Below are positions 16,619 to 60,769 of a stretch of DNA of 64,000 bases, in pieces (position 1 is the first letter of the stretch; every line of letters begins with the position of its first letter). The translations under genes were made by a program, and so were the position numbers. The stretch is from a phage: NCBI GenBank assembly GCA_029945195.1, contig GCA_029945195.1_4117.1. One strand, 5' to 3'. The notes under the pieces were generated by a model, which worked only from the letters and a program-made list of their open reading frames with translations, did not search any database and had not been told where the DNA came from.

Positions 16619-16648
16619 ATGATTGATATTATTTTCAAGGGAGTCCCT

Positions 16649-16846
16649 ATGCGTATTTTAACTCAAGCAGAACACCACGAAAGACTTATCAATAACATGG
16701 CTATGATAATGTATAAGTCACATGACCGTGGTATTGCCTATAAGCGTGAATTAATTATGGCACTATTCATTGGGACTAACTATCAGGAAAGGTATGTCAA
16801 GGATTGGATTTGGTATTTAATTGAAGATGTAACGAGTAAACTATGA
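16649..16846 (+). CDS. family-A array protein (LGTNYQ motif)
   Basis: track ORF trimmed to ATG 16649 (SD AAGGGAG); MRILTQ N-terminus typical of family. Confidence 0.65.
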   Translation: MRILTQAEHHERLINNMAMIMYKSHDRGIAYKRELIMALFIGTNYQERYVKDWIWYLIEDVTSKL

Positions 16847-17043
16847 AAATGCGTAAATTAACCGAAAAAGAATATCAAGCACTGTTACGTAAAAACTTCA
16901 CAAAGATTTATAATACAGACTCACACGTAGAACGAATGGAGTTATACCTTTTGATTACATTGGGAACTAACTATCAGGATGCATGGGTAACGAAATATGT
17001 GGATACATTGAAAAATGAAATTTTGTCCACGAGGAAACAATGA
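16843..17043 (+). CDS. family-A array protein (LGTNYQ motif)
   Basis: tandem paralog; ATGA stop-start overlap. Confidence 0.65.
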   Translation: MKMRKLTEKEYQALLRKNFTKIYNTDSHVERMELYLLITLGTNYQDAWVTKYVDTLKNEILSTRKQ

Positions 17044-17249
17044 AAACTATAACACGAACCCAATCATACGGTCTTATCTTGAAATACATGGACTTAATGG
17101 TGGATATCAGCAAAGACCTTCCTAAAACTGAAATTGAAGTTGCAAGAGCAGAGATCCGTATGTTGGCTGTACTGAACACAAACCATCAGGAAGAGTATGT
17201 TCAAGATTGGATTCGATTTTTAATAGAAGATATTAAGAGTAAACTATGA
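17040..17249 (+). CDS. family-A array protein (LNTNHQ)
   Basis: tandem paralog; ATGA overlap. Confidence 0.65.
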   Translation: MKTITRTQSYGLILKYMDLMVDISKDLPKTEIEVARAEIRMLAVLNTNHQEEYVQDWIRFLIEDIKSKL

Positions 17250-17458
17250 TTATATTAACACCTGAAGAATATAAGAAACGTTTTAAATCTGTCCAGGCTG
17301 AAATATTACTTATATACCTTTCAAATGCAGATCTTAACTTATCAAGGGTAATGGAGAAGGATTTACTTATGGGTGCATTTTTGGATACAGACTTTCAGGA
17401 GTATTATGTAGGAGAATACTTTATTGCACTTCAGAACCACATTAAGAGTAAACTATGA
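17246..17458 (+). CDS. family-A array protein (LDTDFQ)
   Basis: tandem paralog; ATGA overlap. Confidence 0.65.
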   Translation: MIILTPEEYKKRFKSVQAEILLIYLSNADLNLSRVMEKDLLMGAFLDTDFQEYYVGEYFIALQNHIKSKL

Positions 17459-17670
17459 TTATTCTAGAAAAATCATATCAATATACTGAACGCATCGCTG
17501 CCAGACAACTTGAAATCCTCATAATATACGAAGAGACTTCTGATTTAAACTTAGCCGAGGTATTGGAAAATGAAATACTTTTGGGTGCATTCTTGGGAAC
17601 AGACTATCAGGAGTATTATGAGGAAAAGTATTTGTCATCTCTTGAGAAATACGTCAGGAGCAAACTATGA
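17455..17670 (+). CDS. family-A array protein (LGTDYQ)
   Basis: tandem paralog; ATGA overlap. Confidence 0.65.
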   Translation: MIILEKSYQYTERIAARQLEILIIYEETSDLNLAEVLENEILLGAFLGTDYQEYYEEKYLSSLEKYVRSKL

Positions 17671-17894
17671 AACATTTAAGTAATATAGAGAAGAATAAAA
17701 TTATCATTGCTGTAATAAACAAATATTTTACACTTCCACAAAAAGAATGTTTATCTATAAGGGAACACAGGATAAACACCACCGAGATTCGCATGTTGGC
17801 TGTACTGGGGACTAACTTCCAAGAAGGCTATGTTCATGAGCACATCGTTGCACTCACTAATTACATAATGGACAAATGTAATGAACATCATTAA
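17667..17894 (+). CDS. family-A array protein (LGTNFQ)
   Basis: tandem paralog; ATGA overlap. Confidence 0.65.
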   Translation: MKHLSNIEKNKIIIAVINKYFTLPQKECLSIREHRINTTEIRMLAVLGTNFQEGYVHEHIVALTNYIMDKCNEHH

Positions 17895-54546: not shown

Positions 54547-55401
54547 ATGAAACTTTATCTAATCGTTGACTACAATAAGGATTATGCTGGTAACTTCACC
54601 GAAGATTCGGATGGATATTGCACATCGACTAATGTCAATGTACGTAGCAGTAGTGCTCATGAACATGAATCTTGTAAAAATCTAAAAGATTTTATCGCAT
54701 ACCGAGCATTTGAAAAGAACTTCTGCCGCAGTAGATATTCGAAGTTTGAGTACCCGTTAATTGATGTTCCTGATGATTTAATGTTCCAGTTAATGCTAAC
54801 TGGAGTTCAAGATTATGATTACATAGCATATAATCATATTACTAAGAAAATTTATATTGGTACATCATCACATGACACTTCTATGTATGCATCATGCCCA
54901 GATGATCGAATGAATGATAGAAAATCATACTATAGTGGATCAGTTGGTTTAAATGATTCATTAAATAAAAATATATTCTTTGAGTATGTTTATGATTACC
55001 ATCATGAGAAAAAAGAACGTGAAGATTACTGTATAGCAATTGATAGTACTAATGGGTATGAAGACGTGAAAGAAGCACTTATGCCGTACATTATTGAAAA
55101 GTACTACAAAGATTTTCAGTACTGTAGTAATTTTCTAATCAGAAATTCTATTATAATCGGTCGCCAATCTAGTGCATACTCTCAGTACTATAATGATTCA
55201 CCAGTAGCATCGGCAAATGAAATGTGTGATATTTTACAAATTCCACGTGAAGATATGGCATTCATTTTTACATCTTTTATTGAAGATGATGAATTGTACG
55301 TTAAAAATAAACACCGTTTAATGCCAAGTAAGATTGAAATTATTAGATGCGTAAGCGTTGATATACTGACAAATTTTACTGAAAAAACAGAATATAACTG
55401 A
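54547..55401 (+). CDS. hypothetical protein (284 aa)
   Basis: ORF track; SD GGAGA. Confidence 0.6.
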   Translation: MKLYLIVDYNKDYAGNFTEDSDGYCTSTNVNVRSSSAHEHESCKNLKDFIAYRAFEKNFCRSRYSKFEYPLIDVPDDLMFQLMLTGVQDYDYIAYNHITKKIYIGTSSHDTSMYASCPDDRMNDRKSYYSGSVGLNDSLNKNIFFEYVYDYHHEKKEREDYCIAIDSTNGYEDVKEALMPYIIEKYYKDFQYCSNFLIRNSIIIGRQSSAYSQYYNDSPVASANEMCDILQIPREDMAFIFTSFIEDDELYVKNKHRLMPSKIEIIRCVSVDILTNFTEKTEYN

Positions 55402-55430
55402 GACAAAGAATAAGTTAATGATATAATGTA

Positions 55431-55465
55431 AGGTGACAACATAATATGTTGGTCACCTTTTTTAA
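55431..55465 (+). terminator. rho-independent terminator
   Basis: AGGTGACAACAT..ATGTTGGTCACCT then TTTTTT. Confidence 0.65.
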
Positions 55466-56004
55466 TCCTGAAAGGTTCCCATAAGGAAATGATTAAAAGC
55501 CTAATCCACTCGAAAATGTAGAGGGTAGATGAGTAGTCCTTTCAGTACGAACAGCAGATGAAACCCGTTAGATGATGGCATAGTTTGAACCACTCACGGC
55601 AATGCGGCTGTATAAAGAACTCCAATAGGATAAAGAGAGTTCCTCGATAGACATATAAGGATCGCACCTTACCAATTATCTAAGGGAGATTTCATAAGAA
55701 ATATGCGGTCGGAATTATACAATATAGTTGCGTCCAAATTTTGTGAAATCAAATACAAGTACTGGTCATATGGTATTTGTATTATGTGTCGGGATGTTTA
55801 AGACCGACGACCGTTGCTACAAGAACCGCGATAGAGAGAAACAGAGCAACCCGCTTTCGTCTCGTAAGAGAATTCGTGATATGAACTATGTGAAGGCCAC
55901 CAGCGTCAAATTTTTTTGTTCTTTCCCCTGCGGGGGGGATGAAATATGCTCAAGCAAACCCCGTCAATATTAATTAAAAGAAAATAGTACTTGTAGAATT
56001 AGAC
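55466..56004. other. ~540-bp noncoding island, visibly less AT-rich than flanks
   Basis: no convincing ORF (track ORF 55728-55973 has no SD and odd composition); holds CCACCAGC 55897-55904 and T7..G7 element. Confidence 0.4.
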
Positions 56005-56079
56005 ATGCGTAGCATGATAATTCTACTGATGTTGATGCAATCAACGTCACGTATATTCATTGATGTTTCCATAGGAATA

Positions 56080-56625
56080 ATGATGGCATTTATTAGAAAA
56101 GAAAAAACTGTTACTTATAAAACTTTGAATTTTGATGATTGCATTAATCAGTCACAAGACGAAGATATCTTTACTGGATATGTGGTTATTAAAGAAAAAG
56201 GATGCATTTCTTATATAAAGGAATTACAAAATGGAATTGAAGTGACTTCAGTTAAATTACTTCCTACTCAAAAACCAACAATATCAAAAGCCCAGTATGG
56301 TAATTATTTTGAAGAAAGATATAGTAATAATTCAATAAGTGTTAAGGCTCATATTATTAAAGGAGAACTAGAAGGAGAATATAGAAAATACAACCCACAA
56401 GGAAAATGTGTTTGGGTTAAATACTTCAATTCAGGATATGATGTAACATCTGAAATTATAGAATTCTTGGGTTTAAAATGTACCCCTGAGACTATTCATG
56501 ATTACAAGTTCAATACTGAAGAAGAGTTTAATCTGATGATGCGTTACGGTTCACATTTTAAATTTTTATATGAATATAACATTGACAGTAGTACTTTTGA
56601 TAAGATAGTACACAACTGTCTCTAA
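56080..56625 (+). CDS. hypothetical protein with MORN-like repeats (181 aa)
   Basis: track ORF 56005-56625 trimmed to ATG 56080; GEYRKYNPQGKCVWVKYFNSGYD resembles MORN/YwqK-type repeats (weak). Confidence 0.4.
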   Translation: MMAFIRKEKTVTYKTLNFDDCINQSQDEDIFTGYVVIKEKGCISYIKELQNGIEVTSVKLLPTQKPTISKAQYGNYFEERYSNNSISVKAHIIKGELEGEYRKYNPQGKCVWVKYFNSGYDVTSEIIEFLGLKCTPETIHDYKFNTEEEFNLMMRYGSHFKFLYEYNIDSSTFDKIVHNCL

Positions 56626-56641
56626 CAAAAGGAATTATATA

Positions 56642-57163
56642 ATGTCGAAGAAGGATGCTTCGAAAAAACATTCAGTACATTTCAGTACTGGAAAGGACAA
56701 CTGGACAACTCCCAAAGATTTCTTTGAAGATTTGGATGAGTTATGGGGATTTACACTTGATGCTGCTTGTGTTGATGAGACTGCATTGTGTGATAACTAT
56801 TTTACACCTGATGATAATTCTCTTGAACAAGACTGGGGAAAAAATATTGTTTGGTTAAATCCCCCATATAGTGATTTAAAAACTTGGTTAGCCAAGGCAG
56901 TAGATGCGTATAATAAAGGTGCTACAGTACTGATTCTAGTACCATCCAGGACTGATACAATAGCATTTCAGGAATATGCAGCCAAAATATGTGATTGTAT
57001 TTGTTTTATCAAAGGTAGATTACGTTTTGGTATTCCAGAAGAACCTGATAAGAAAACAGATTCAGCACCATTTCCTTCGTGTCTTATAGTCCTTGATAAG
57101 TACCTCACTACTGCTAAAATTAATTATCTTAAATCTCTCGGATTGGTGATGAAGAATCTATGA
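56642..57163 (+). CDS. DNA N6-adenine methyltransferase, phage Dam-like (173 aa)
   Basis: WTTPKDFFEDLDELWGFTLDAAC N-terminal block and NPPYS catalytic motif; SD AAAGGA. Confidence 0.6.
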   Translation: MSKKDASKKHSVHFSTGKDNWTTPKDFFEDLDELWGFTLDAACVDETALCDNYFTPDDNSLEQDWGKNIVWLNPPYSDLKTWLAKAVDAYNKGATVLILVPSRTDTIAFQEYAAKICDCICFIKGRLRFGIPEEPDKKTDSAPFPSCLIVLDKYLTTAKINYLKSLGLVMKNL

Positions 57164-57693
57164 AAGAAACATGTGTATTAACGTTTGGTCGTATTAATCC
57201 TGTACATCGTGGACATGGTTTAGTTTTTGAAAAGGCCAAAACATTACAAGAACAGTACAATGCTGATTTAAAAATATATCTAAGCACCAGTACTGACAAT
57301 ATAAAAAACCCACTCCCACCTGAACTAAAAATGTATTATACAGAGGGATTCTATCCTTCAGTGCAAGAGAACATCTACACAGAAGACAATCTATTTGATA
57401 TAATGAGAGAACTGGATGGAAAGTACTTAGATGTTCTTTTCATTTGTGGTTCTGACCGTATTGATTCTTTTCAAAAAACTCTTGACATGTACAATGGTAA
57501 GTTGTATAATTTTTGTAGTATAAAAGCAATTCAGGCAGGTATTGACCGTAATGTAAGTCAATATAGCTCAACACAAATGCGTAACTTCGCAAAAAATGAA
57601 GATTTTGATAGTTTTCGTGAGTTTTTACCTGGAAATGACGAGGACTTAAAAATACAATTATTTGAAGACGTTATAAAATACATGAGGAAATAA
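57160..57693 (+). CDS. NadM-type nucleotidyltransferase, likely NMN adenylyltransferase (177 aa)
   Basis: FGRINPVHRGH (HxGH motif as in NadM GRFQPFHKGH) and SSTQMR (SxTxxR); ATGA coupling to upstream MTase. Confidence 0.6.
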   Translation: MKETCVLTFGRINPVHRGHGLVFEKAKTLQEQYNADLKIYLSTSTDNIKNPLPPELKMYYTEGFYPSVQENIYTEDNLFDIMRELDGKYLDVLFICGSDRIDSFQKTLDMYNGKLYNFCSIKAIQAGIDRNVSQYSSTQMRNFAKNEDFDSFREFLPGNDEDLKIQLFEDVIKYMRK

Positions 57694-57695
57694 TT

Positions 57696-57989
57696 ATGTC
57701 AGTACTGTTCAAAACCAATCCAGTACTTTGGGATCAAAATGAGCAATCAGGATTTCGTTCCATCCATGTTGAATACAAAGGTAATACTGTAGTTGCAATT
57801 ATTGCTAACAAAACTCTAGGAAACTGGACTGCACAGGTTGTTCCTATGGGATATTCTTACACATCTGATGAGGTACAATTCCTGGCTGAACTATATCGCC
57901 AAGTGCCGTTTATCATTAATGTACTAGAAGGTAATGATACATTATCACATGCAGATGTGATTAATTTTCTTGGAAACTTGCATGTGTGA
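57696..57989 (+). CDS. hypothetical protein (97 aa)
   Basis: ORF track. Confidence 0.5.
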   Translation: MSVLFKTNPVLWDQNEQSGFRSIHVEYKGNTVVAIIANKTLGNWTAQVVPMGYSYTSDEVQFLAELYRQVPFIINVLEGNDTLSHADVINFLGNLHV

Positions 57990-58269
57990 TGAAATAAATC
58001 TTACAGGATATTTTTTACAAGAATCAATGATTAAATTTAGTGAAAAATTTTCAGTACTGGATGGTATCGAAATGTGGCATGTCAAACCACTGTTCCACAC
58101 TTTCAGTAAAGAGCACAAAATGTTATTGACTGAAGCGAGTAAATCAAATAACATATGTGAAATCAAAATTGGTGTAAATGTCTATAAAGGGATGGTTATC
58201 TTTTTTGACAATAACAGCAACTACTTTTATATTGTTAAGGAGCATTACGTTGACAAATACAAATACTAA
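57982..58269 (+). CDS. hypothetical protein (95 aa)
   Basis: track ORF (TTG 57970) trimmed to first ATG 57982. Confidence 0.45.
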   Translation: MCDEINLTGYFLQESMIKFSEKFSVLDGIEMWHVKPLFHTFSKEHKMLLTEASKSNNICEIKIGVNVYKGMVIFFDNNSNYFYIVKEHYVDKYKY

Positions 58270-58864
58270 TACATACTTCCGTTATCTTCGCTTAGGTCTT
58301 TCCCTACGTCCGATCCGTGGAAAGTGCGATTCACTCGCTGACCTTGACTATGCATATGCATTACATCATGAAGGTGTACAGTATGTATTGGGTGATTATG
58401 GTGAATTTGAAGAAACAAATGACAGTACTGGAATTAATGCTGGTGTAGAAAATCTTAACAACATTGCTAACAGTTCTCGCCATGACATTGTGTTACAGAT
58501 TCAAAACTTTATTGAGCAGCACACAGGTAAACGTGTTTGGTGCTATGTCGGTACTGATGCACAAATGTCAATTTCATTCGGTAACGATGAAGGATATGTT
58601 GCACAGCTTATTATGGATTTTGAATCTGAAGAGAAGTTTTTAGAATTCAAAGAAAAGATTATTCAGTCACTTGTTGATATGGGTATCCCCGAAGATAAAA
58701 TGCCAGAAGTTCAAAACATTGATGAATTTGTTTTGATTCCATCTGATGAGAAATATGATGCAATGTTTACTGCTCTTAATATTCCAGGAGTTATTGTGGA
58801 GTACTTTGATGATGGTGATGATAGTATCTATATCGATCTAGATGACGATGACGACGATGAATAA
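58250..58864 (+). CDS. hypothetical protein with poly-Asp C-terminus (204 aa, TTG start)
   Basis: track ORF 58178-58864 trimmed to TTG 58250: SD AAGGAG 58237-58242, 7-nt spacing; ends DLDDDDDDE. Confidence 0.5.
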   Translation: MTNTNTNTYFRYLRLGLSLRPIRGKCDSLADLDYAYALHHEGVQYVLGDYGEFEETNDSTGINAGVENLNNIANSSRHDIVLQIQNFIEQHTGKRVWCYVGTDAQMSISFGNDEGYVAQLIMDFESEEKFLEFKEKIIQSLVDMGIPEDKMPEVQNIDEFVLIPSDEKYDAMFTALNIPGVIVEYFDDGDDSIYIDLDDDDDDE

Positions 58865-58871
58865 TGTACAT

Positions 58872-58898
58872 AGCCCGACATAAGTTCGGGCTATTTTT
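58872..58898 (+). terminator. rho-independent terminator
   Basis: AGCCCGA-CATAAGT-TCGGGCT then ATTTTTG. Confidence 0.65.
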
Positions 58899-58910: not shown

Positions 58911-59186
58911 ATGAATTATAAAGTTCTACAATATACATACAGTGTTTTGTTTGATTTACATCACAATGGAAGATATCTCAATACAATACGAGAAAACACA
59001 TTCACTCATACTATCTGGATTAATCACTTAATAATGATACGTGAATATTTTGTTAATAGTGAGATAATCATTCGTGGTAAAAAACAGAAGATAGAACAAG
59101 TTAATAGTTTTGGTGGTAAATTAGTACTATCATTTATAGATAGTAATACTAATGAAAGATATAGTATAGATTTGGTGGACATATGA
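58911..59186 (+). CDS. family-C tandem small protein
   Basis: MNYKVLQYTYSVLFDL..; tandem paralogs follow. Confidence 0.55.
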   Translation: MNYKVLQYTYSVLFDLHHNGRYLNTIRENTFTHTIWINHLIMIREYFVNSEIIIRGKKQKIEQVNSFGGKLVLSFIDSNTNERYSIDLVDI

Positions 59187-59449
59187 ATTATAAAGATTTC
59201 CTACTAACATACAAGATTATTCGAGATTTAGCACACGACAATGATAGCCCTAGTCTAGAAGACACATGCACTGAAATGATTCATACAATTCGTGGTAAGA
59301 TTAAAAAAAAATTCAGTACTGTTATTATTGGTGATGACCATGCAGAATTTTCTGATATAATCATTAGACGTGATGGTAAAGTTGAGGTTCAGTACTACAC
59401 TGATTTTGGATTTACCAGTATTCCGTTGGAGATATTCCCTTGGGATTAA
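59183..59449 (+). CDS. family-C tandem small protein
   Basis: MNYKDFLLTYKIIRDL; ATGA overlap. Confidence 0.55.
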   Translation: MNYKDFLLTYKIIRDLAHDNDSPSLEDTCTEMIHTIRGKIKKKFSTVIIGDDHAEFSDIIIRRDGKVEVQYYTDFGFTSIPLEIFPWD

Positions 59450-59751
59450 ATTTAAATGATATACAATTCACTTATAAGATCCTATATGATTTGTATGATG
59501 TATACCTTGTTAGTAACAAAATAGGTTCACATAACCCATACAAAGAACAACCATTTATTGATTTATATATTGAGTACTTAGATTCAGTAGGTGAATATAT
59601 AAAAAAGAATTACAGTACTTTTATCGACGGAAATGATATATTCGAGTTCTCTGGAGTTAAATCATACAATGGGATTATCCATGTTGAATTTCTTGAAATA
59701 ACCGATAGGGGATTTATCGAGATTAAAGTTGTGAAGTTGGTGAATTTATAA
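59440..59751 (+). CDS. family-C tandem small protein
   Basis: LNDIQFTYKILYDLYD. Confidence 0.55.
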   Translation: MGLNLNDIQFTYKILYDLYDVYLVSNKIGSHNPYKEQPFIDLYIEYLDSVGEYIKKNYSTFIDGNDIFEFSGVKSYNGIIHVEFLEITDRGFIEIKVVKLVNL

Positions 59752-59761
59752 GAGGTTACAT

Positions 59762-60073
59762 ATGTTATTAAATGATATACAATTCACATACAAATTTTTG
59801 TATATCCAATACGCTACGGTTGATGCTGGAGAATATCTCTACGGTGAAATCTATCGTTCGGTATGGATAAAGTTTTTGGATGAATTACATGAATATTACC
59901 ATGATTTGTGTATAGTTCGTGATAATAAAATATACAAATTCCGCGATATTGTTAGTCATAGCGGTAAGCTACGATTGGAATTGAGTACTGATAGTGATGT
60001 TGATTGGATTGGTGTAAATTTACTGGAGTTGGAGAATGAAAAACAACTTAAAGGAAATACAAGTATTTTATAA
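59762..60073 (+). CDS. family-C tandem small protein
   Basis: LNDIQFTYKFLYIQY. Confidence 0.55.
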   Translation: MLLNDIQFTYKFLYIQYATVDAGEYLYGEIYRSVWIKFLDELHEYYHDLCIVRDNKIYKFRDIVSHSGKLRLELSTDSDVDWIGVNLLELENEKQLKGNTSIL

Positions 60074-60320
60074 ATTCTTATACTTGTCATATGTAAAAGA
60101 TGAGTACTATGAAAGTGTGTATTATTTTTTATGGCAACATTACCGTACTATAGTAAGAGATTTATATATAGGAAAATCTATCATATCCAATGGTGAAAAA
60201 TGTATATGTACTGATGTTGTTAGTTTTAATGGTTCTTTAACACTGTGTTTCAGATGCGATAATAATAGTGGGTCATTTTCATTAAACGTATATCAGTTAG
60301 AAGGAATAAATTTTGAATAA
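60036..60320 (+). CDS. family-C tandem small protein
   Basis: LKEIQVFYKFLYLSY. Confidence 0.55.
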   Translation: MKNNLKEIQVFYKFLYLSYVKDEYYESVYYFLWQHYRTIVRDLYIGKSIISNGEKCICTDVVSFNGSLTLCFRCDNNSGSFSLNVYQLEGINFE

Positions 60321-60513
60321 ATGTCCATATTGTAACAGTACTCAATTAGCTCGTTTCCGTTTAGATTCAGACTGGGCGACTGGTGCTGGTGATTTCTTCC
60401 CTATTAATGATGATGCAGAATACACCGAAGAACAGCACAAAGATTTTGATAAATCATGGCGACCTGACATTGAGTGCATTTATTGCCTTAATTGTGAGCG
60501 TGTTCATGACTAA
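60313..60513 (+). CDS. zinc-ribbon small protein (66 aa, TTG start)
   Basis: CPYC..(x45)..CIYCLNC, two CxxC pairs; TTG start in track; overlaps neighbours. Confidence 0.35.
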   Translation: MNKCPYCNSTQLARFRLDSDWATGAGDFFPINDDAEYTEEQHKDFDKSWRPDIECIYCLNCERVHD

Positions 60514-60769
60514 AGCTGAACTAATAGTTCATACATATAAAATGATATCAAGTACTGAGTTATCATATAGTGCAGATAATCCAGTACTGGATTATTTTGT
60601 TGAATTATTGAAAGAGCATTATATTGGTAAATCACTGATTCTTAATAATATTAATTTCACGGTAAAGGATGTAGCACCTGGAAAAAACGTACTAATAGTA
60701 TGTGTTACTTCATCTGATAACCCAGTATACCCAATATCAATAATTTTTGAGATATTAGGAGATTTATGA
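60506..60769 (+). CDS. family-C tandem small protein
   Basis: track ORF 60383-60769 trimmed to ATG 60506; ELIVHTYKMISS. Confidence 0.5.
   Translation: MTKAELIVHTYKMISSTELSYSADNPVLDYFVELLKEHYIGKSLILNNINFTVKDVAPGKNVLIVCVTSSDNPVYPISIIFEILGDL

Follow-up and report, generated by a model that had tools for sequence, protein, structure and literature searches.

In the phage pathways NARP2 and NARP3, a nicotinamide mononucleotide (NMN) adenylyltransferase (NMNAT) is paired with Nampt or with PnuC and a nicotinamide riboside (NR) kinase. Phage Dam-type N6-adenine DNA methyltransferases of Pfam family PF05869 have been characterised for T1 Dam, HP1 Dam and VT2/933W Dam, and characterised PF05869 Dams target GATC. 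A further group, the T4-GC0190 clade (PHROG 3041, 395 and 455), is catalogued as 'cyanophage-encoded cytidylyltransferase' and includes Syn9 gp184, S-RIM8 SXDG_00170, GAP32_069 and RaK2/K64-1 gp581. Cyanophage papers guess that members of this clade act in the manner of TagD and say of the homolog that its function 'remains unclear', and in one study a 362-aa cyanophage homolog was detected at low abundance in purified virions (PMC9146016). Here we analyse two overlapping genes within a 64,000-nucleotide stretch of phage DNA (GCA_029945195.1, contig GCA_029945195.1_4117.1; the whole stretch is referred to as the window), which a preliminary description had read as a translationally coupled Dam-like methyltransferase (open reading frame 1, ORF1) and a NadM-type NMNAT (ORF2).

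The explanation that we favor, with a probability of roughly 0.7, is that the locus encodes an ordinary Dam and an independent, stand-alone adenylyltransferase of the T4-GC0190 clade that are co-transcribed. Both ORFs are found on the plus strand where they had been placed, at 56642-57163 (173 aa) and 57160-57693 (177 aa), and the motifs on which the first assignment relied are present, namely WLNPPYS in ORF1 (residues 71-77) and GRINPVHRGH (10-19) and SSTQMR (136-141) in ORF2. At the junction the DNA reads AATCTATGAAAG, and the ORF1 stop codon TGA (57161-57163) is overlapped by the ATG that starts ORF2 (57160-57162). Neither ORF is a chance frame, because ORF1 matches PF05869 (E = 6.6e-32) and ORF2 matches phrog_3041 (E = 8.5e-58). 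The window comes from a jumbo coliphage of the genus Asteriusvirus (121Q/PBECO4-like), whose genomes measure about 350 kb. A 3-kb stretch of the window shows 97.9% identity to 121Q, G17, phAPEC6 and Sharanji, all Asteriusvirus, and more than 30 sequenced genomes of the genus keep both ORFs at 96-98% nucleotide identity. In those GenBank records ORF1 is named 'DNA methyltransferase' and ORF2 'cytidyltransferase', the latter being mislabelled 'ribonucleotide reductase A' in some Asteriusvirus records. The locus is not new, since dozens of genomes already carry ORF2 as an annotated gene, albeit with misleading names. Other labels attached to this nucleotidyltransferase (NTase) in GenBank (121Q, 7t3, Ecwhy_1, Turkey3/5) include, besides 'ribonucleotide reductase A', 'NrdB', 'phosphopantetheine adenylyltransferase' and the propagated typo 'cytitidyltransferase'.

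Judged by its sequence, ORF1 is an ordinary, complete phage Dam with nothing unusual about it. It matches the Pfam Dam model with 110.9 bits (cutoff 28.1) over profile positions 7-149 of 169 and phrog_111 at E = 3.3e-56, scores 92.7 bits on TIGR01712, slightly below the equivalog cutoff of 97.05, and carries the NPPY catalytic motif of Dam at residues 73-76. The Dam-like identity given in the preliminary description is therefore upheld by both the PF05869 gathering score and the NPPY motif. The enzyme would methylate adenine at N6 in phage DNA with S-adenosylmethionine as donor, presumably at GATC. GATC is under-represented in the window (positions 1-64000), with 129 sites against 208 ± 13 expected from dinucleotide-preserving shuffles; this scarcity does not settle the specificity of the Dam. 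By our own count, the sites are unevenly spread, the first 20 kb holding about 74 and the other 44 kb about 55. The Dam is routine; the interest of the locus lies in the abundant NTase family encoded next to it.

ORF2 is the bare catalytic domain of a distinct, large, phage-specific and experimentally uncharacterised clade of HIGH-signature nucleotidyltransferases. Besides phrog_3041, it matches phrog_395 (E = 1e-24). A word-indexed homolog search returned only close Rak2-like relatives, and the wide family surfaced through an exhaustive profile search, which yielded 3,477 clusters (50% identity) at E < 1e-3 and 2,285 at E < 1e-10. The family is present in about 560 sequenced phage records, around 460 of which are T4-like cyanomyophages (Syn9 gp184 and similar). 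Rak2-like carriers examined are RaK2, K64-1, GAP32, CBB, 7t3, Serratia BF, Erwinia SNUABM phages, Xanthomonas XbC2 and Yersinia fHe-Yen9-03/04, and PA5oct-like Pseudomonas phages are among the further carriers. Across 191 members the invariant positions are G10, R11, P14, (T/H)16, G18, H19, S42, D46, K49, N50, P51, L52 and K57, followed by G97, S98, D99, R100, Y111, N112, G113, G127, R130, S136 and R141. The window NTase has the consensus residue at all 29 positions conserved in at least 80% of these members. R11 is conserved in 97% of the family, and 73% of the family has TxGH, not HxGH. It should be noted that an annotation error surrounds one named relative: S-RIM8 SXDG_00169 (572 aa, phrog_764, L005:5914-7632) is labelled 'cytidyltransferase' and is a low-complexity Lys/Ala/Ser-rich protein without the NTase domain (family hidden Markov model (HMM) E = 0.34, no Pfam match).

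The features of the HIGH superfamily are all found in ORF2, namely a five-stranded parallel Rossmann-like fold, (T/H)xGH after strand 1 and SxTxxR near the C-terminus, and its AlphaFold model is confident (pLDDT 93.5, pTM 0.87). Because of this fold and the conserved ATP-site residues R11, H16, H19, S136, T138 and R141, the protein would most likely transfer an adenylyl and not a cytidylyl group, in the reaction ATP + X-phosphate -> ADP-X + PPi. ORF2 is most probably an adenylyltransferase, its nucleotide specificity being presumed, and almost certainly not a cytidylyltransferase. In Pfam and NCBIfam, ORF2 reaches none of the curated thresholds for NMNAT, phosphopantetheine adenylyltransferase (PPAT), FMN adenylyltransferase (FMNAT) or cytidylyltransferase. 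It scores 17.3 bits on PF01467 (CTP_transf_like; gathering score 21), which same-family relatives pass at 22.6-32.5 bits, and equally 17.3 bits on FAD_syn (PF06574; gathering score 27). A sequence search of the Protein Data Bank (PDB) with the ORF2 protein or a narrow profile gave nothing useful. Foldseek returned PPATs for all top matches (E = 1e-6, TM 0.65-0.68), and the best full-length match of the HMMER family profile among PDB sequences was the PPAT of Helicobacter (H. pylori; E = 9e-6, 147 positions), with which the profile shares KNPMF and GLRvvsDF...Y.N; the Methanocaldococcus jannaschii (M. jannaschii) NMNAT was matched only over the N-terminal 60 residues. With hhalign, in which the 191-sequence family profile was compared with verified single reference sequences, the ranking was different: 91-94% for the RibF FMNAT domain, 91.5% for the M. 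jannaschii NMNAT, 89% for the M. thermautotrophicus NMNAT, 73-83% for the NadR NMNAT domain, 43% for PPAT (about 43% for the E. coli enzyme) and 20% for NadD. The clade thus lies at about the same distance from several adenylyltransferases whose acceptors are phosphorylated cofactor precursors, and its own acceptor is not readable from sequence or fold.

The same mixture is seen at the level of residues. A NadM-like part comprises GR..P.HxGH with its Arg, YSSTQMR and an IKNPL loop, which reads IRDPF in the M. thermautotrophicus enzyme. An FMNAT/NadD/PPAT-like part consists of the invariant GSDR...F...L..YNG..Y.F after strand 4, which replaces the SGNP of NadM. YSSTQMR (residues 135-141) aligns to YSGTEIR of MJ0541, a motif that occurs superfamily-wide and so does not discriminate. 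R11 corresponds to the position mutated in M. thermautotrophicus NMNAT PDB entries (R11K). In a low-confidence hhalign alignment, GSDR lies opposite SGNP and F79 opposite Trp, and the Trp and Asn positions are not conserved in the family. We take the SGNP block and the D-I-E-x-N-x-x-W helix to be the NMN contacts in the M. thermautotrophicus NMNAT-NAD+ structure, with W87 presumably stacking on the nicotinamide.

For the acceptor, NMN, giving NAD+ (nicotinamide adenine dinucleotide), is the best single guess, a tentative one that we hold with considerable doubt. ORF2 as a genuine NMNAT would make NAD+ from NMN and ATP and keep NAD+ up during infection, a reading that is possible rather than probable. 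The NMN would come from the host (NAD+-dependent LigA, NR salvage), or the NAD+ would serve a phage SIR2 protein or NAD+-dependent RNA repair. NMN/NaMN adenylyltransferases are the specific NCBIfam models touched most often by 29 diverse family members (matches: NadD 20, PRK01153 15, NadR-NMNAT 9, arch_NMN 8, FADS 8, CoaD 6), none of them near its cutoff. Of the assignment to NadM-type NMNATs in the preliminary description, the HxGH (with Arg) and SxTxxR motifs stand, whereas the curated scores and the NMN-site determinants do not bear it out. ORF2 is below the cutoffs of the curated NMNAT models TIGR01527, PRK01153, TIGR01526 and TIGR00482; its best score, on NadD TIGR00482, is 19.8 bits against a cutoff of 112.45 and covers residues 8-28 only. 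The best E reached by any family member on NMNAT models is 9e-8, and most matches are limited to the shared N-terminal HxGH region. Further points against a genuine NMNAT are the invariant GSDR in the place of SGNP, the alignment of the presumed stacking Trp to the unconserved F79, and the equally good fit of PPAT and FMNAT.

Genome content bears on the same question. No NadV, Prs or Nudix-type partner had been noted in the window, which tblastn of the window confirmed; the accompanying suggestion that a partner might lie elsewhere in the genome is not supported, as a complete Asteriusvirus genome (assembled OR844650.1, Escherichia phage ECO103 4-12-1, 351,992 bp) lacks NadV, Prs, PnuC and NadR. 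Probes taken from phages (a genuine NadV and two NadM-Nudix proteins) and from E. coli (NadR, NadD, RibF, Prs and PnuC) gave no match in this genome better than E = 0.08 (NadV, best E = 0.079) save one Nudix-box match. The probes for Prs (C-terminal 156 aa) and PnuC (N-terminal 111 aa) were partial, which makes these two negatives weaker than those for NadV, NadM and NadR. The genome encodes a SIR2-family protein (233199-233930; PF02146, E = 3.6e-20), 46% identical to g109 of Yersinia jumbo phage fHe-Yen9-03, and a 132-aa Nudix hydrolase (cited at ~197330-197437), and no NAD+ synthesis genes. An NAD+-dependent phage DNA ligase for which the NTase would recycle NMN was considered and rejected: the ligase of the phage belongs to PF01068 and is ATP-dependent. 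This counts against the NMNAT reading, since with such a ligase the phage produces no NMN of its own by that route.

The most telling result against a NARP2-type role comes from the related fHe-Yen9-03, where the family gene g057 lies directly after the Dam-like g056 and a canonical NadM-Nudix (g100) and NadV (g102) cluster, which also holds the SIR2 homolog of this phage (L010:11144-11935), is present 22 kb away from g057. NadV occurs in 1,939 phage records, and the ten organism names that turn up most often among them (cut-off 55 records) do not include Synechococcus, Prochlorococcus or 'Cyanophage'. The distribution of the ORF2 family is uncoupled from that of NadV, because about 460 cyanophage records, the bulk of the family, hold it and NadV is uncommon there. 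This uncoupling, itself a point against the NMNAT reading, removes the NARP2-like framing and still leaves room for NMN adenylylation. If NMN is the acceptor, the enzyme would replenish NAD+ from NMN of the host and would not be one half of a NARP2-type pathway, since the genome has no NMN-producing partner. A NARP-style account with a missing partner is not supported.

A second explanation, which we consider unlikely, is that the family acts in RNA or nucleic-acid repair or end-processing together with ligase-type enzymes, by adenylylating a 5'-phosphate end, by forming an NAD-type cap from 5'-triphosphate RNA and NMN, or by supplying the cofactor of a ligase-like partner. The clues come from relatives. 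In cyanomyophages, gp183 (Pfam DUF6267) is found immediately upstream of the NTase in 4/4 loci examined. By our analysis DUF6267 is an RNA-ligase-fold KxDG enzyme, and the pairing implies an RNA/DNA-sealing association for the NTase family. PHROG 455 is one profile that joins DUF6267, the NTase and a further domain. There are no DUF6267-NTase fusion proteins among the 191 representatives, so the evidence for fusion amounts to the composite PHROG 455 profile and strict adjacency only. A literature search on DUF5824 or DUF6267 returned nothing. The further domain, here called domain X, is a shared stretch of about 55 aa with the motif LRE.Y..G......D.VE...R..N...G.....W that looks like a small beta-barrel. 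In 107 of the 109 members (among 191) with a C-terminal extension, the extension begins with domain X, and long charged tails or kinase or DUF5824 domains often come next. By Pfam the fused domains are mostly blank, with only AAA_33/Zeta_toxin P-loop kinase, DUF5824 and Hint recognised. Three metagenomic relatives (P0137, P0103 and P0164) carry an N-terminal extension (to about residue 300) in which, by eye, a Pol-beta-type NTase signature (SGS...x9-13...DFGDIDL) precedes the HIGH NTase domain. This N-terminal part is unrecognised by Pfam, and the three would be double-nucleotidyltransferase proteins.

The window phage itself offers T4-type Rnl1 and Pnk, 7-10 kb downstream of the locus and just past the end of the window. 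NAD+ is consumed in phage RNA repair by KptA and possibly by sirtuins (PMC9503650), which is one way to reconcile a sealing association with an NMNAT-like activity. Carried further, the NTase clade could be the small-molecule or adenylyl-supplying half, and DUF6267 the other half, of an unrecognised two-component nucleic-acid sealing/repair system, a proposal that we regard as speculative and less likely than repair in the broader sense. Within such a system the NTase might regenerate a ligase cofactor on site (NAD+ from NMN), or pre-adenylylate or cap 5' ends, and the stand-alone domain of Rak2-like phages would serve the phage Rnl1/Pnk RNA-repair set or SIR2. Several observations speak against repair. 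We know of no small NMNAT/PPAT-like HIGH-family enzyme that acts on polynucleotide ends. The window phage has neither DUF6267 nor domain X, the linkage to RnlA/Pnk in Rak2-like phages is loose, and the kinase fusions fit a NadR-like small-molecule pathway equally well. In aquatic T4-like phages the NTase lies in a general replication/nucleotide-metabolism module (gp43, UvsX, gp41, MazG ... NTase ... NrdAB). Two specific candidates were tried and rejected: a domain X encoded as a split small ORF beside the NTase (across the six window frames its HMM gave a best E of 2), and a DUF6267 immediately before the NTase in further aquatic T4-like contigs, where the preceding proteins are not DUF6267.

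Improbable, in our view, is another cofactor precursor as acceptor, either 4'-phosphopantetheine (PPAT-like, giving dephospho-CoA) or FMN (FMNAT-like, giving FAD). The Foldseek and full-length HMMER results and the prevalence of TxGH, as in PPAT, point to the former. The best hhalign score, that of the RibF FMNAT domain with its aligned GSD...R..F..L...G..Y.F block, and a FAD_syn score identical to that for CTP_transf_like point to the latter, and some GenBank records say PPAT. CoaD enzymes are marked by the curated model TIGR01510, (T/H)xGH and Lys/Arg residues that serve the 4'-phosphate and ATP, and the RibF FMNAT domain by GxFDGxHxGH and G.DF.FG motifs. Against both stand scores that are all under curated thresholds, with only 6/29 members touching CoaD and 8/29 FADS models, the lack of an obvious known benefit to the phage, and the absence of CoaE and riboflavin kinase from the annotation examined.

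A true cytidylyltransferase of the TagD, CCT or ECT type, making a CDP-activated alcohol for modification of the cell envelope or virion, is very improbable. It would agree with the database name 'cytidyltransferase', with the weak PF01467 match and with glycosyltransferase and sulfotransferase genes just upstream in one T4-like contig. True cytidylyltransferases (TagD/GCT, CCT, ECT) are marked by RTxGISTT and RYVD-type motifs; ORF2 gave no close structural and sequence match to them, and none of the 25 NCBIfam families listed for the 29 members is a cytidylyltransferase model.

The order of the two genes raises the question of whether they belong together functionally. The preliminary description had made the ATGA coupling a central feature; the overlap is real and is not special, being a genome-wide habit. 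There are 25 ATGA stop/start overlaps between plus-strand ORFs of at least 60 aa in the window, and by our own count 15/93 annotated junctions have the same 4-nt overlap in the matching stretch of 121Q. In ECO103 4-12-1 (OR844650.1, 259539-260324) a 261-aa ORF is inserted exactly between Dam and NTase (window position 57160), with ATGA-type overlaps on both sides. It contains two CapR-homology/DUF723 zinc-ribbon domains and looks like a mobile, homing-endonuclease-like element, its C-terminus having been read as GIY-YIG/T5orf172-like without Pfam support. Outside Rak2-like phages, the NTase has no adjacent Dam in the cyanophage, PA5oct-like and aquatic T4-like loci examined. Because such overlaps are common, ECO103 4-12-1 carries this insertion and the NTase occurs elsewhere without Dam, the two are likely to be functionally independent enzymes, as the favored explanation has it. 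The PA5oct-like NTase context differs from that in Rak2-like phages and cyanophages: in phage PAC2 (L006:5537-8397) a Kelch-repeat protein and a 'putative adhesin' gene come after the NTase homolog.

That Dam and NTase form a single DNA-modification module, for example with the NTase activating a group that is then placed on DNA, is hardly credible: adjacency kept in four Rak2-like genera and a PF05869-containing phrog_33262 annotated as PAPS reductase (a family which we take to be related to HIGH nucleotidyltransferases, so that Dam would be joined to such a domain elsewhere) speak for it, but the flanking order is the same in GAP32, K64-1 and fHe-Yen9-03, where the flanking genes are likewise collinear and adjacency may be inherited, the CapR/DUF723 gene separates the two in ECO103 4-12-1, most family records come from cyanophages whose examined neighbor is ligase-like and not Dam, and the Dam is a complete, ordinary enzyme.

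Some points do weigh against an ordinary Dam plus an independent adenylyltransferase. The Dam-to-NTase order is kept in at least four genera (Asteriusvirus; Mimasvirus, GAP32; Alcyoneusvirus, K64-1; Eneladusvirus, fHe-Yen9-03) at an NTase identity of 38-50%, and this adjacency could reflect a functional link. The predicted preference for adenylyl over cytidylyl transfer draws only on the ranking of folds. By naming a family and no acceptor, the explanation is a classification more than a mechanism.

The Dam and NTase genes are treated as co-transcribed in a compact six-ORF block that extends from the gap at 55402-56004 to the hairpin at 58870-58894:

55402-56004, no strand: non-coding gap of about 600 nt (ORF list; the 121Q annotation has the same 613-nt gap).
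56005-56625, plus strand: first gene of the block, 206 aa, homolog of 121Q gp416 (phrog_16210 at 3.2e-94, no Pfam match).
56642-57163, plus strand: phage Dam-family N6-adenine DNA methyltransferase, 173 aa (PF05869, phrog_111, TIGR01712).
57160-57163, plus strand: ATGA stop/start overlap between Dam and NTase (sequence).
57160-57693, plus strand: predicted HIGH-signature (HxGH ... SxTxxR) Rossmann-type nucleotidyltransferase, 177 aa (T4-GC0190 / PHROG 3041 clade).
57696-57989, plus strand: small ORF, 97 aa, not domain X (phrog_14956 at 1.8e-47).
57970-58269, plus strand: small ORF, 99 aa, annotated gp420 in 121Q (phrog_38105 at 2.4e-68).
58178-58864, plus strand: last ORF of the block, homolog of 121Q gp421 with an acidic C-terminus (phrog_15575 at 1.1e-92 from residue 26).
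58870-58894, plus strand: intrinsic-terminator-like hairpin, 9-bp stem with 5 GC pairs and a T-run (terminator scan).

The gap is the probable start of the transcription unit. A promoter scan found sigma-70-like matches in it, for example at 55398-55427 (10/12 with TG), and an Rfam search of the gap and the gene block gave no match. A gene of similar size to the first one precedes Dam in GAP32, K64-1 and fHe-Yen9-03. For the gp421 homolog, the annotated 121Q start corresponds to about 58250 in the window. In phage G17 a 'terminator' feature is annotated somewhere within the matched 3-kb stretch. A perfect sigma-70 consensus (TTGACA, 17 nt, TATAAT; 12/12) lies inside the NTase ORF at 57482-57510 on the plus strand, and could be a separate promoter for the three small downstream ORFs or a chance match in AT-rich DNA. 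Just past the terminator, at 58911-60769, five or six small paralogous ORFs (about 88-128 aa) follow one another in tandem, several of them joined by ATGA or short overlaps; their N-termini have in common a motif resembling ...(L/I)Q(F/Y)TYK(I/F)LYDL.... Comparable runs of ORFs of about 70 aa are found at 16619-17894, and such small-gene families fill much of the window.

With thousands of clusters, the NTase family is frequent among marine T4-like cyanophages and retained throughout the examined Rak2-like jumbo phages, and its database names ('cytidyltransferase', 'ribonucleotide reductase A', 'PPAT') are without experimental basis. If it produces NAD+, it would give phages a partner-less way to maintain NAD+ that differs from NARP1, NARP2 and NARP3 and bears on defences that deplete NAD+. 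The most interesting lead is the cyanophage pairing with the ligase-fold DUF6267. If the two are partners, they would point to a new nucleic-acid repair/sealing module, which might help explain nick sealing in cyanomyophages, phages that, to our knowledge, have no annotated DNA ligase.

Compared with known systems, the Dam resembles the phage Dam family PF05869 in its Pfam match over almost the whole model, its NPPY motif and its small size (about 170 aa), and differs in nothing notable beyond the sub-cutoff TIGR01712 score. ORF2 departs from NadM-type NMNATs (MJ0541, M. thermautotrophicus, Francisella FT NadM, KVP40 NatV) in falling below every curated NMNAT threshold, in having GSDR for SGNP after strand 4 and its own invariants R100, Y111-N112 and R130, and in its lack of a Nudix fusion in a genome without NadV; most of its family, moreover, is TxGH. 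It is similar to CoaD/PPAT (about 160 aa) in length and shares with it the KNP(M/L) loop, an Arg that follows strand 4 and, in most family members, TxGH, but the GRxxP of the family has Arg where the GTFDP of PPAT has Thr. The RibF FMNAT domain has the highest hhalign probability, an aligning GxD...R..F..L...G..Y.F block after strand 4 and a weak FAD_syn match in its favor. Closest of all is the T4-GC0190 / PHROG 3041 clade, of which the window NTase is a member with all family invariants present; like other Rak2-like members it is bare, whereas 109/191 relatives have C-terminal extensions.

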